From assembly GCF_024521635.1 (NCBI RefSeq), contig NW_026250427.1:434001-498000 (forward strand): a stretch of 64,000 nucleotides of DNA, given 5' to 3'. The notes under the pieces are model-generated. The model did no database searches. It was not told where the DNA came from and saw nothing but the letters and a program-made list of their open reading frames with translations. The position numbers were made by a program, and so were the translations under genes. Origin of the DNA: Tricharina praecox (lineage: Eukaryota). Of the stretch, positions 34,232-39,689 are shown piece by piece (the stretch's first letter is position 1; the number at the start of each line of letters is the position of its first letter).

Positions 34232-35230
34232 CTCGTATGGTTGAGAGGAAGGAATGGTGTTCTTCTGCACGGTGGAGAGTTTGCGAGGCCACGATGGTGG
34301 TCGTTGGTGCGCTTTGAGTCGTCGTGCGTAGCAAGGAGGTTGAAGTTAGAGTCCACGTGCGCGCGTCAGTACTGGTCCTTACATAGCTACCATGGTTTAG
34401 TTAGCTCCAGGCCCCAGGTCAGCTCCAGGCTTCGCATTGAAGAATAGTCATGTGTTGTTTCGATTCCCCAGCTCCGTCCGGCCGACCGCACGTAGTCCAC
34501 ATCCCCTCCACGTATCCCGGAACAAGTACGCGTGTCATCGCTTTCCCGGGCCCGACAACTGCCTGCGAGCGACGTCCCGCCGACTGGGCGCCAGGCACTT
34601 CCGATAAGGCTACATGCTAAGAATGCGAGGCTGAAAATAGTCGCTCCGTACATACGCACTCTGCACAGCTTTCTTTTTCTTGGCCTGGTACGAGTTGATC
34701 TCACTCCACTCCGCCGTAAATGCGCATGTGCCGGCAGCGCCAGGGTACTCGCCATAGTCTGAATTTCACGCAAAGTGTCCTTTCCGCGCTTCAGCTCGCC
34801 GCCATCTCATGCCATTGGCCGGTGCGACATCTCGCAACGACAGAGCAGGAATCGCAGTCAGCCTGCGCAATTGAATCTCTTTTGTTCCTCTCCCTCTTTT
34901 TTCTCTTCTCTTCCCTTTCTCTTCTCACTCCACTTATTTGCTTCTCTTCGCGAGTCTCTCTTTTGTAACCAAACCCCGTCTCTGCAATCGGGCTACCGTG
35001 AGGGCGCCCCTCCCCCCCACAAGATTAGATTCCCGCCAGCAGCAGCATAGCGAAGCACCAGCTCAAGGTTACTTCTCTTGACCCCTGACCGCCACGAACG
35101 ACGAACCTTCCATACCATACCCCCCGTTCCCAGATCCCACAGCAACATACCCATCTCCTACATACACATACACATACACATACACATACACCGCAACCGA
35201 AAAACCACAATCGCTCCCTGCTGAGCAGCC

Positions 35231-38200
35231 ATGGCTCAGAAAGACAAACTCGGCGGCGGCGTCGTCGTCGCAGACGCTGAGCCCTCGTCGCGATCACGAA
35301 AACGCAGCAAGAGCAGATCGCCGACGCGGGCGAGCAATCAGGACACCTCTCCACCACCACCGCCACCCTACCAAGAGAAACCCGAGTCGTCGCGAAACGA
35401 TGTCGACCCGGGAGTCAAGGACAATGACATCTTCCTGTTGCCGTCGTCAGACTATTCCTTAATGATCCTGTTGACTTGTATCGCCGTCGCCGTGCGGTTG
35501 TTCCGGATCTACCAGCCGTCGAGTGTGGTGTTCGATGAAGTCCAGTAAGCCTCCAGAACTCAATGCAGGGAGAGAGAGAGGGTGGGAGAGAGAGAGAACG
35601 TGTCACTGATGGGCCCATGCGTGCGTGTCATAGCTTTGGCGGATTCGCGATGAAGTATATCAAGGGACGGTTCTTCATGGACGTCCACCCACCGTTGGCG
35701 AAGCTCATGATTACCCTCGCCGGTTGGTTGGCCGGCTTTGACGGAAACTTCGATTTCAAGGAGATTGGAAAGGACTACCTGGAGCCCGGCGTTCCATATG
35801 TGGCTATGCGCATGCTTCCGGCAGTTTGCGGTATCTTGGTTGTTCCTACGATTTTCTTGACCTTGAAGGCAGCGGGTTGTGCCACGGCTTCGGCGACTCT
35901 GGCGGCTGGATTGATCATCTTCGGTAAGTTCTCAAACCCCCGACAATTCGGATGATTGCCGGCGTGGGAATCGATTGGACTGACTGACTGACTCGGTTCT
36001 ATTCTAGACAACGCATTGGCCACCCAGTCTCGGCTTATCCTCCTTGACGCCCCACTCGTTATCTTTACGGCTCTGACCGGACTCGCGTGGACCTGTTTCC
36101 TCAACGTCCACGAGCAAGGCCACACCCAGGCGTTCTCGCTCAACTGGTGGTTCTGGCTCGTGTGCACCGGACTCGGATTGGGTGCTACTGCCAGCGTCAA
36201 ATGGGTCGGCCTGTTCACCATTGCGTGGGTTGGAAGCTTGACGATTCTGCAACTGTGGTCTCTGCTCGGCGACACCAAAAATGTCTCGGCCAGCTCCTGG
36301 ATGAAGCACTTCTTCTCGCGCGCCATGTGCCTGATCGGTATCCCGGTCACCTTCTACATGGCTATGTTCGCGATCCACTTCACTTGTCTCCGCAACCCCG
36401 GTGAGGGTGACGGATTCATGTCCTCTGAGTTCCAGTCCACGCTCAACTCAAAGGGAATGAAGGATGTCGCCGCCGATGTCGCCTACGGCTCCAAGATCTC
36501 CATGAGGCACTACAACACTCAGGGTGGTTACCTCCACTCTCACGCGAGCATGTACCCCGGCGGATCCAAGCAGCAGCAAATCACCCTCTACCCCCACAAG
36601 GATGAGAACAACGTTTGGTTCCTCGAGAATACCACTTACCCTGAGGGAGGAGTCGGCGTCACCGGTTTCGACGAGATGGATCCCATCTGGGTCAAGGACG
36701 GTGCCATCATCCAGTTGTACCACGTCAACACCGACCGAAGACTTCACTCTCACGATGTCCGCCCTCCGGTCACCGAAGCTGAGTGGCAGAACGAGGTATC
36801 CGCATACGGCTACAAGGGATTCAAGGGCGACGTCAACGACTACTTCCGTGTTGAGATCGTTAAGCATCTCTCGGACGGCGCAGTTGCCAAGGAGCGCCTG
36901 AGGACCATCCAGACTAAGTTCAAGCTTGTCCACACTCAGACCGGATGCGTGCTCTTCTCCCACAAGGTGAAGTTGCCGACGTGGGGTTTCGAGCAGCAGG
37001 AGGTCACTTGCGCCAAGGGTGCCACGCTGCCCAACAGCATCTGGTACATCGAGTCCAACGAGCACCCCAAACTCGGCGCAGACGCAGAGCGCGTTAACTA
37101 CCGCAAGCCTGGTTTCCTCGGAAAGTTCTGGGAGCTTCAGAAGGTGATGTGGAAGACCAACGCCGGCCTCGTCGAATCGCACGCCTGGGACTCGCGCCCC
37201 GACTCGTGGCCCATCCTTCGTCGCGGTATCAACTTCTGGGGTAAGAACAACCGCCAGGTCTACCTCATCGGCAACCCTCTCATCTGGTGGTCTTCGACCG
37301 TCGCAATCTGCATGTACGCCTTGTTCAAGGGTCTTGCCGTCCTCCGTTGGCAGAGGGGTTACCGCGACTACGCCGTCACCAACTTCCGTCGTTTCGACTA
37401 CGAGGTCGGTGTGGCTGTCCTTGCGTGGGCTTTCCACTACTTCCCCTTCTTCCTGATGCAGCGCCAGCTGTTCCTTCACCACTACCTTCCTGCGCTCTAC
37501 TTCGCCGTTGTCGCCTTGTGCCAGACATTTGACTTTGTCGCTTTCCGCATCAAGGCCATCGGTCTCAAGAAGCTGCCCGTCGTCGGCTGGTCCATCGCTG
37601 TCGTCTTCCTCGCCCTCAGTGCCGTCGTCTACGGTCTGTACAGCCCGCTCGTCTATGGCAACCCCTGGACCAAGAGCGACTGCCGCCGCGTGAAGCTCTT
37701 CAACACCTGGGACTGGGACTGCAATACCTTCCTTGACAACTACTCTGACTACAACAACATCGTCTCGAAGAAAACCGCCGCCGCTACCGTCCCCACCACT
37801 GCCGCCGCCGCCCCTGTCGCCGAAGTCCCCGCCGCCCCCGCCAAGCAGGAGCAGCAGCAGCAGCAACCCATCATCCAGAAGGACAATGTCGCCGCCGCAC
37901 CTCCCGTCGTCCCGGCGGCAGAGCAGCAGCCCGAACCCGTCAAGTCCGAAGAGCCCATCGACTCTATGATCACTGGGCAGCCCGCGCCGCCAGGAGAGAT
38001 CGTTGACACAGATGAGCACGTCGAGTACCGCGACCAGGACGGCAACCTCCTCGACCTCGACCAGGTCAAGGCCCTCGAGGGTCAGGTCGAGTTCGAGACG
38101 AAGTACGAGACTCGCTACAGGATGATCGATGAGGATGGAAATTACATTCCCGTCAACCCTGATGACGTCGCGCCTGAGCAGGGTGAGGAATCACCTAAGC

Positions 38201-39205
38201 AGGAGCAGGAAAAGCCGGTGGAGAAGGAACAGGTGAAGGAGCAGGAGAAGCCGGTGGAGCAGGAGAAGCCGGTGGAGCAGGAGAAGCCGGTGGAGCAGGA
38301 GAAGCCGGTGGAGCAGGAGAAGCCGGTGGAGCAGGAGAAGCCCACGGAGCAGGAGCAGCAGTTGCCCCAGGATCCTGAGGCCATCGAGCCCGAGACTACC
38401 AAGACTGTTGAGACTTTCGAGACTGTTACCGTTCGCGTCGACGAGGACGGCAAGCCCATCGAGGGTGACGAGCAGACCCGCACTGTGTACATCGACGCTC
38501 CCGAGGGCTCGGAAGTCCCGGACGAAGCTGGGTAAGTCGTCTCTCCTCTCCTCTCTCTCACACTCTAACTTACTGACCCTCCCCCAGCTCCAACGACGGC
38601 AAACCCATCGAGGCTGAACAGGAGACCCACACCGTGTACATCGACGCCCCTGAGGGCTCGGAGGTCCCGGCCGAAGCTGGGTATGTCGTCTTCCTCCATC
38701 TCCTCTTCCAACACTTACTAACACTCCCCCAGCTCTGACGGCAAACCCATCGAAGAGGAGACTCACACCGTCTACATCGATGCCCCCGAGGGCTCGGAAG
38801 TCCCGGTTGAAGCTGGGTAAGCTGTCTCCCCTCCTACTCCCCGTCCAACACTTACTAACACTCCCCCAGCTCCAACGACAGCAAACCCGTCGAGGCTGAA
38901 GAGCAGACCCACACCGTGTACGTCGACGCCCCCGAGGGCTCGGAAGCCCCAGCCGAAGCTGGGTAAGTCGTCTCTCCTCTCTCTCCCCTCAACACTTACT
39001 AACGCCCCCCAGCTCCAAGGACGGCGAAGAACGCGAAGAGGTCGAGATTCTCCGGACCATCTACGTCGACGAGTTCGGCAACCCTCTCCCCGACTCGGAG
39101 CAGGAAGGCTACGTCGAGGTTAAGGGAACGGAGGTGCCTGGCGAGGAGCTGCCGCCGGCGTCCACGCTTGCGGATGCACCGGTTGAGGCGCAGACTACCG
39201 ATTAG
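35231..39205 (+). CDS. PMT1: Dolichyl-phosphate-mannose:protein O-mannosyltransferase, PMT1 subfamily, with a long acidic repeat tail, ~1196 aa
   Basis: Exons 35231-35544, 35634-35923, 36008-38531, 38588-38680, 38733-38816, 38870-38962, 39013-39205 (3591 nt). Motifs VVFDEVHFGGF, FFMDVHPPLAK, SRLILLD, KWVGLFT, MIR repeats (GGYLHSH, RLHSHD, LFSH), RQLFLHHYLPAL. Confidence 0.93.
38203..38346 (+). repeat. Coding 18-bp minisatellite (EQEKPV); five perfect copies at 38239-38328 plus degenerate flanks
   Basis: GAGCAGGAGAAGCCGGTG repeated in frame within PMT1. Confidence 0.95.
38440..39012 (+). repeat. Four-copy tandem array of an exon+intron unit (~137-148 bp) in PMT1
   Basis: Each unit encodes D(G/S)KP(I/V)E...T(H/R)TVY(I/V)DAPEGSE(V/A)PxEAG and is followed by GG|GTA...CTTACT(A/G)AC...CCCCCAG. 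Confidence 0.93.
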
Positions 39206-39689
39206 ATAAGAGAGTAGACGGATGCGATGCGATGGGATGGGGATATACTATCTTATAATTACATGTCATGTCATGTGGATGGATGTCATGAAAACGGGGA
39301 GGGGGCGGGGGCGGGGGGGAGTTTTTCTTGCTATTCTGTTCTGTTTTGTTTCTGTGGCATATAGGTATTGAATGCTAGCGGTTCGCGAGGTCGGAAGTCG
39401 TGATTGCGGTTGTGGTTGTACTTGTGACATGTGGGATGTGTACTCGTCGCCAGCTACCTTCATTGTGTGGCACTCGCTACCTAGTGTCGTGCTGGGGAGA
39501 TGTAGCTGTTTCTTGATCCCTTAACATTGAGGCCATGGTTCAAGATGTCCGAAGAAAACGAAGGACCGAATGTTCAGCATACCTAGGCGTGTCATTGCCT
39601 TCAAGCATGACGGTCATGTGACACCTGTGTGGCAGTCGCTGGAGGAACAGTGGATTCTCAAAGATGCGACTTGTTACGATGTATATACA

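Follow-up and report, generated by a model that had tools for sequence, protein, structure and literature searches.

How does the gene of a conserved endoplasmic reticulum (ER) glycosyltransferase come to end in four near copies of one short exon and its intron, and what do the additional copies mean for the protein? This question arises at a PMT1-subfamily protein O-mannosyltransferase gene in Tricharina praecox, which lies on the forward strand of a 64,000-nucleotide stretch of DNA (contig NW_026250427.1, positions 434,001 to 498,000) that we call the window and number from its first letter. We consider it very likely that a segment of ~145 nt was amplified from one copy to four in this lineage by microhomology exchange, and that the resulting array is fully spliced and lengthens the luminal tail of the enzyme.

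Structure and splicing of the array

When aligned with MAFFT, positions 38437-39012 fall into four head-to-tail units of 151, 145, 137 and 143 nt, each made up of a coding part of 28-31 codons followed by a GT..AG intron of 50-56 nt. The gene and the parts of the array are listed here; X2 and X3 are two sequencing runs and L001 a metagenome locus, all described below.

35231..39205, + strand: PMT1-subfamily protein O-mannosyltransferase gene, 7 exons and 6 introns, stop codon TAG at 39203-39205
38437..38531, + strand: coding part of unit 1 (end of the big exon), orthologous to the single unit of L001
38532..38587, + strand: array intron 1, 56 nt, GTAAGT...CTAAC/CTGAC...CAG, phase 2, joint in X2 and X3 contigs
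38588..38680, + strand: unit 2 exon, 93 nt, seen as contig pieces
38681..38732, + strand: array intron 2, 52 nt, GTATGT...CTAAC...CAG, phase 2, joint in X2 and X3 contigs
38733..38816, + strand: unit 3 exon, 84 nt, with in-frame 3- and 6-nt deletions relative to units 2 and 4
38817..38869, + strand: array intron 3, 53 nt, GTAAGC...CTAAC...CAG, phase 2, joint in X2 and X3 contigs
38870..38962, + strand: unit 4 exon, 93 nt, seen as contig pieces
38963..39012, + strand: array intron 4, 50 nt, GTAAGT...CTAAC...CAG, phase 2, joint in X2 and X3 contigs

A sequence-only reading of this locus had described four introns of 50-56 nt as copies of one another, placed them all in phase 2 of one Gly codon, and taken the exons between them to encode variants of a single peptide. 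We find exactly this arrangement. Between units, the coding parts are 84-90% and the introns 71-84% identical; every array intron splits the Gly codon as GG|C, and each carries a branch box (CTAAC or CTGAC, within ACTTACT[AG]AC) 10-19 nt from its 3' end. The internal exons of 93, 84 and 93 nt encode variants of one 28-31-residue peptide. The same reading was also right that retention of array intron 1, 3 or 4 leads to an immediate GGG-TAA and that the open reading frame (ORF), called from stop to stop, ends at 38535; retained array intron 2 would be read for 17 more codons before a stop. A repeat search recovered the array as a four-copy family of 124 nt with spacings of 149, 136 and 146 nt and gapless identities of 65-90%, and Tandem Repeats Finder, which applies strict indel penalties, gave 14 rows, none with a period of ~145 nt. 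For the 20-nt 3' end of the intron, the window gives 3 matches at up to 3 mismatches, against 0.01 expected from 100 shuffles, and the 3' end of the fourth copy differs from the other three by an indel. Neither this 20-nt search nor blastn-short with all four introns found an array-intron copy elsewhere in the window; outside the array, blastn-short returned solely low-complexity CT-rich matches.

The copies are not uniform along their length: array introns 1 and 4 are exactly alike over their first 19 nt, and introns 2 and 3 over their last 26 nt. The units contain no stops or frameshifts, their indels come in threes, and they retain the core T-x-T-V-Y-[IV]-D-A-P-E-G-S-E. For 6 of 6 unit pairs the ratio of nonsynonymous to synonymous divergence (dN/dS) lies below 1, at 0.13-0.86 on small counts, and weak to moderate purifying selection on the units is the most likely reading. 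The array has the features by which an exon-plus-intron tandem duplication is recognised, namely coding and intron parts that can be aligned, splicing of all copies and a frame that is kept.

Is the array spliced? Eight sequencing runs were found, 7 of them with part of the gene and all in the form of Logan contigs; contigs were compared for four of the eight (X2, X3, X6 and X7), leaving out the DNA-type runs X1, X4, X5 and X8. X2 and X3 are two runs from two studies, with two coded organism labels. In each, one contig covers the upstream part of the gene (35200-38236 in X2, 35200-38266 in X3) with both upstream introns removed, and a second crosses the array: record 2 of X2 (807 nt, 38372-39383) and record 4 of X3 (758 nt, 38315-39283) both lack exactly the four array introns and show 0 other letters. 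All four array junctions are therefore bridged in X2 and X3. Since six introns are cleanly removed, we treat X2 and X3 as transcript assemblies. Contig depths in bins across the array match exon-only coverage (for example 164 versus 269 in a bin that is ~61% exon), and thus no X2 or X3 contig covers an array intron. Six joints were listed in total over the four runs, all GT..AG, with no exon-skipping joint among them; because contigs drop rare variants, low-level isoforms could go unseen. The metatranscriptome runs X6 (one short contig) and X7 (two) have none on the array, and X7 shows the joint of the first upstream intron only. In our reading the dominant mRNA holds all four units and is fully spliced, and we commit to the view that splicing of the array is constitutive.

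As a separate observation, contigs of X2 and X3 leave the gene into unrelated sequence at 35349 and 37866. The latter position is the end of an AGC triplet run (37844-37865), and the former lies inside a Pro-rich coding stretch. These loose ends are probably branches of the assembly graph to other transcripts rather than biology.

Origin of the additional units

The direction of the change can be read from relatives of the gene. Tail residues 640-847, used as a protein query, retrieved 9 proteins. P0001-P0004, the closest four, come from ORF calls and end ...G at the expected intron start, and P0005 and P0006 continue to ...AEAQTTD through what appears, from the protein alone, to be a single in-frame intron. 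A protein search with short or spliced tail fragments (residues 788-847) gave 4 candidates, of which 0 were significant. A metagenome scan with the tail alignment returned at least 590 pattern matches, and 51 loci were confirmed among the matches listed. When these loci were searched by tblastn with the four unit peptides and the last exon, L001 was the sole match (1 of 51); a tblastn search of the same loci with the tails of P0002-P0004 showed that their own contigs are not among them.

L001 is the contig of P0001 (100% match) and, among the matches listed, the nearest relative for which there is DNA, with 82% identity across the big exon; P0001 and the window ORF share the same residue at 685 of 840 aligned positions. 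L001 contains a single unit with a 48-nt intron (713-760; GTAAGC...ACTAAC...TAG), after which come the last exon and a partly conserved 3' untranslated region (3' UTR). Its intron lies in the same GG|C Gly codon and in the same phase as the array introns of the window. This comparison of copy number, one unit in L001 versus four in the window, bears out the proposal of the sequence-only reading that introns were gained by intragenic tandem duplication. Units within the window are more alike (exon 85-90%, intron 71-84%) than any is to the L001 unit (exon 76-82%, intron 47-59%), which argues for a lineage-specific amplification. Synonymous divergence (dS) is 0.16-0.58 between units and 0.46-1.78 over orthologous stretches of the window and L001, in both cases on small counts. 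The simplest reading of these sequences is that one ancestral unit of exon end plus intron was amplified to four in this lineage after its split from L001, and likewise that its steps did not all fall at one time, units 2 and 4 being the youngest pair.

The boundaries of the units point to how this may have happened. An 8-nt sequence recurs in each unit and at the start of the last exon:

38446..38453, + strand: GACGGCAA, 8-nt microhomology, putative site of unequal exchange
38595-38602, 38737-38744, 38877-38884 (GACAGCAA) and 39020-39027 (GACGGCGA), + strand: further copies of the microhomology

The five copies, starting at 38446, 38595, 38737, 38877 and 39020, have the form GAC[AG]GC[AG]A. 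On their 5' side, units 2-4 agree with the beginning of the last exon (CTCCAA[CG]; CCCCAAC in L001), and on their 3' side with unit 1 (A/G-CCCATCGAGG) instead of the last exon, so that every array intron is followed by CTC(CAA)[CGT]GAC[AG]GC and then by A/G-CCC[AG]TCGA[AG]G as in unit 1. The amplified segment would have reached from the closing part of the penultimate exon through the complete short intron to ~15 nt into the last exon. The first duplication is best accounted for by replication slippage or unequal exchange involving two copies of GACGGCAA (codons D-G-K/N): the copy in the last exon would have been joined to that in the penultimate exon ~145 nt upstream, with the intron between them carried along. 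Unequal exchange at the microhomology probably made the units, and later copies would have come from unequal exchange between units. Periodicity already present in the tail peptide, which has hydrophobic-x-D-x-x-G motifs on either side of the intron, would have supplied the microhomology. Every copy would have brought an intact intron, including the branch site and both the 5' and the 3' site; as the internal coding parts are multiples of three, three introns and three exons of 28-31 codons were gained with the frame intact. The protein translated from the mRNA has four acidic modules in tandem ahead of its conserved C-terminal end. On the most likely reading, the amplification lengthened a repeat-prone, acidic and mostly unstructured ER-luminal tail by three modules, and we commit to the reading that their effect on the enzyme is modest at most.

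Could the array instead serve to vary the length of the tail, either by combinatorial use of its splice sites or through differences in array length between strains? With exon lengths of 93, 84 and 93 nt, the frame is retained when any 5' site is joined to any later 3' site; stochastic splicing across the human tandem repeat gene UBC, described in an excerpt of PMC10809524, provides a precedent; and the tail is repeat-prone, with three separate tandem expansions relative to L001 and a 14-residue duplication in P0002. If the 5' site of one unit paired with a later 3' site, or if strains differed in unit number, PMT1 would occur with one to four luminal acidic modules that adjust a property of the tail, such as calcium or partner binding, and a fungus would have an equivalent of the stochastic splicing that is reported to vary monomer number in human polyubiquitin. 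We regard such tuning as improbable, and see equally little prospect that the array is a working length-variation device. The sequence-only reading had called the internal exons cassettes by which splicing tunes tail length, a view that finds no support in the contigs: in two runs from two studies the four canonical joints are the only ones listed in the array, none skips an exon, and the introns are covered by no contig. Intron definition is the main mode of splicing in fungi, where retention outweighs skipping, according to an excerpt of PMC4324775, in which intron retention makes up 93.4% of alternative splicing events in the filamentous fungus Trichoderma. Since the coding parts of the units have diverged by 10-15%, the array also appears to be old and stable rather than in rapid flux. 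It is conceivable that the units reflect a collapsed or expanded repeat in the assembly, given that ~145-nt repeats can be mis-assembled and that Tandem Repeats Finder did not call the period. However, the units differ at 10-29% of positions and are thus distinguishable, and in the transcript contigs of both studies the four coding units follow one another as they do in the window, with 0 differences. Because two runs carry all four, we give practically no credence to an artefact of the window.

The order of events might also be the reverse, with an ancestral four-unit array, loss of three units in L001 and gene conversion homogenising the copies in the window. The mosaic identity of the introns suggests conversion or exchange between units, and the dS of the oldest unit pairs (0.52-0.58) is similar to that of some window-L001 stretches (0.46-0.68). 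Yet no unit of the window is distinctly nearer to the L001 unit, all being nearer to each other, and the distant P0005 and P0006 read through one intron-like in-frame stretch, as judged from protein only. L001 is also without the two 18-nt expansions of the window, which fits expansion in the lineage of the window, and it seems unlikely to us that the array is ancestral. A mobile origin, in which the four introns belong to an independently inserted family of introner-like elements (ILEs), has the attraction that ILEs multiply introns in some fungi, as set out in an excerpt of PMC4457414. Here, however, the similarity extends into the flanking coding sequence at 84-90%, all four introns sit at the same codon position of a repeated peptide, the 3 intron-end matches in the window all fall within the array, and the two other introns of the gene are unrelated; the chance of such an origin appears negligible.

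Several points nonetheless weigh against a lineage-specific amplification by microhomology exchange. Only one close relative with DNA bears on its polarity, the genomic sequence downstream of P0002, P0003 and P0004 not being among the loci, and the divergence counts rest on 27-31 codons per unit. Gene conversion could make an old array look young, and the array introns are mosaic. The microhomology mechanism is deduced from present-day sequence. X2 and X3 were labelled 'RNA?' by guess, their RNA nature following from the six clean intron removals, and as both are 100% identical to the window they may come from the same strain. Finally, the luminal location of the tail and its lack of fold, discussed below, are deductions too, with an AlphaFold mean predicted local distance difference test score (pLDDT) of 52 obtained from 6 sequences.

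The enzyme and its C-terminal tail

When the six introns are taken out, the coding sequence runs from the ATG at 35231 to the TAG at 39205 without internal stops (3591 nt, 1196 amino acids). The features outside the array are:

35545..35633, + strand: upstream intron 1, 89 nt, GT..AG joint in contigs of runs X2, X3 and X7
35924..36007, + strand: upstream intron 2, 84 nt, GT..AG joint in contigs of runs X2 and X3
38202..38359, + strand: 18-nt in-frame tandem array encoding EQEKPV, ~8.8 copies (Tandem Repeats Finder and repeat search), 5' of the exon-plus-intron array
39013..39205, + strand: last exon, whose start is a diverged relative of the unit and which encodes the conserved C-terminal end ...EAQTTD
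39206..39383, + strand: 3' UTR, reaching at least to 39383 (X2 contig record 2), partly conserved with L001

Both upstream introns are unrelated in sequence to the four array introns. The big exon corresponds to the ORF at 35992-38535, in which Pfam places PMT, MIR and PMT_4TMC in the expected order (PF02815, 1.3e-41; PF16192, 2.9e-73; PF02366, 8.8e-35, the last a partial match, the N-terminal exons lying outside the ORF scanned). In a phmmer search against the Protein Data Bank (PDB), yeast Pmt1 (2e-165, 555 bits) ranks ahead of Pmt2 (9e-100, 338 bits) and Pmt4 (4e-74, 253 bits), and residues 5-602 of the ORF align to residues 175-756 of Saccharomyces cerevisiae Pmt1 (PDB 6p25 chain A). Because the best match among solved structures is yeast Pmt1, ahead of Pmt2 and Pmt4, the PMT1 label that the gene had received from its sequence is justified at the subfamily level, and these matches identify it as a probable PMT1-type O-mannosyltransferase. 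The loop-1 DE motif FDEVHFGG (VVFDEVHFGGFA), the catalytic role of which is described in an excerpt of PMC7759382, is restored once the first intron of the gene is removed, and mannosyltransferase activity is predicted from membership of the family.

Immediately 5' of the start codon, a CA/CATA-type microsatellite occupies ~35120-35170 and reads HIHIHIH, THTHTHT or YTYTYTY in its frames; the transcript contigs reach at least 38 nt 5' of 35200. At the other end, a block of the 3' UTR (39240-39295 in the window, 985-1035 in L001; TATAATTACATGTC...CATGTGGATGGATGT.ATGAAAACGGGGAGGGGG) is almost unchanged despite synonymous divergence nearby, and it may be a regulatory element. An ORF of 265 codons on the minus strand (38191-38988) was set aside as a by-product of the GC-rich repeat, all six joints reading GT..AG on the + strand.

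The protein extends ~447 residues past its last membrane domain. This tail is 19% Glu and 11% Pro, carries a net charge of -76 over 407 residues and has no match in Pfam. As PMTs have 11 transmembrane helices with loop 1 in the lumen, according to an excerpt of PMC7759382, the odd number of helices means that the C-terminal tail should be ER-luminal. In line with this, 4 of the 26 orthologous tails readable in frame (L008, L014, L015 and L026) end in KDEL, KEEL or KKDEL. We used AlphaFold2 to model a 172-residue stretch of the tail that includes unit 1, from an alignment of 6 sequences. The mean pLDDT was 52.3 and the predicted template modelling score (pTM) 0.17, with values of ~58-81 over the first ~50 residues, which hold a conserved motif, and 33-53 over unit 1; these are too weak for a call of folded or disordered. 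The conserved motif itself, HVEYRDQDGN..D.EQVK.LEG.V.F.T.YETR, spans ~45 residues (38017-38160), lies far past the last Pfam domain and has no Pfam match. It is present in 51 metagenome loci among the matches listed, its dN/dS against L001 is 0.04, and by its conservation it looks like an uncharacterised luminal element of Pezizomycotina PMT1 enzymes.

Tandem repeats in the tail are not confined to the exon-plus-intron array. The EQEKPV array corresponds to a 44-residue gap in P0001/L001; its copy number is not confirmed by RNA, because the contigs of X2 and X3 both break inside it. A second in-frame duplication at 38392-38427 consists of two 18-nt copies (ETTKTV/ETFETV; an ETxxTV repeat) where L001 has one, and P0002 has a separate 14-residue duplication of its own (GGDEETRTVYVDAP x 2). 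From these sequences the tail appears to be generally prone to tandem duplication.

The last exon is 79% identical to that of L001 over 61 of 63 residues, and its C-terminal end is shared by P0005, P0006 and P0010. When its 63 residues were searched with HMMER against 1.84 billion representatives, 12 matches were returned, of which P0010 and P0013 are last-exon ORFs of relatives. Of the other matches, three were inspected by sequence: in P0011, P0012 and P0017, repeats of the WVDENGN.LK or Y.DQFGN type weakly match VYVDE.GNPLP of the last exon, and P0011 and P0012 resemble Gram-positive wall-anchored proteins. We rejected homology to these WVDENGNxL- and YxDQFGNxx-repeat proteins, taking the resemblance to be a short hairpin-like motif that is probably convergent.

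Comparison with known systems and meaning

Tandem duplication of exons together with their introns is familiar from animals, as in the SRGY-box exons of RBMY and the 54-bp exon units of the fibrillar collagens. The PMT1 array resembles these cases in its head-to-tail coding parts with complete introns, each with its own splice sites, in its coding lengths in multiples of three and in the tandem peptide modules that result. It differs in lying in a filamentous fungus, with introns of 50-56 nt of the intron-definition type, in the tail of a housekeeping ER glycosyltransferase, and in being apparently spliced constitutively. Internal tandem repeats at exon-intron boundaries have also been described in human genes of segmental duplications, in an excerpt of PMC2812944.

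A second known route to new introns is tandem duplication of an exonic AGGT proto-splice site, which excerpts of PMC2891723, PMC3629103 and PMC4974935 report for Drosophila, fission yeasts and the RdRp gene of potato, respectively. As in that model, the gene has more introns as a result of a small intragenic tandem duplication, and it is still possible to tell where the new intron came from. In the AGGT model, however, the new intron is the duplicated exon sequence between two AGGT copies and has the length of the duplication, whereas here the duplication of 137-151 nt is ~3x the length of the intron (50-56 nt) and the protein is lengthened. We therefore place the array outside the AGGT definition, because a pre-existing intron, to whose counterpart in L001 the array introns are homologous, was copied whole and the protein grew.

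Like human UBC, the gene holds a tandem repeat whose units all have their splice sites in the same position, and alternative joining without loss of frame would in principle be possible. In UBC, according to the same excerpt of PMC10809524, the splice sites are dual-specific and isoforms with variable monomer number are observed; the PMT1 array has separate 5' and 3' sites around real introns, and no alternative joint was seen. Like the ILEs of Dothideomycetes and other fungi (excerpt of PMC4457414), the array introns are short and near-identical and occur several times in one fungal genome. ILEs lie scattered through unrelated genes and bring no duplicated exon with them, whereas the PMT1 copies are adjacent, were duplicated together with their exon and have no further copy in the rest of the window, and we do not assign them to that class. 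Compared to S. cerevisiae Pmt1, which has the same PMT, MIR and PMT_4TMC domains, the window protein adds the ~447-residue acidic, repeat-rich tail, while the yeast protein ends ~60 residues past position 756 (of 817).

The kind of event is thus already known: amplification of an exon-plus-intron unit, a mechanistically ordinary way to gain three introns. To this kind the array adds a clean fungal case in which three introns were gained by duplication of a unit, verified by RNA and polarised by an outgroup. Our searches of the full-text literature, supplementary files apart, turned up no fungal PMT gene described with an array of this kind, in agreement with the sequence-only reading, which knew of no precedent. 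No established view of intron evolution or O-mannosylation is overturned.

Intron gains whose source sequence and mechanism are still readable are scarce. Here, three gains in one gene are polarised by a relative with one unit, and the likely breakpoint can be read as an 8-nt microhomology. The locus is therefore a tidy teaching and benchmark case for fungal intron gain by unit duplication and for gene predictors. Prokaryote-style ORF calling truncates the gene at the first array intron, and the records of P0001-P0004 end ...G likewise; they are missing the conserved last exon because the ORF calls stop at the homologous intron. The array also draws attention to the long, conserved and uncharacterised C-terminal tail of Pezizomycotina PMT1 enzymes.

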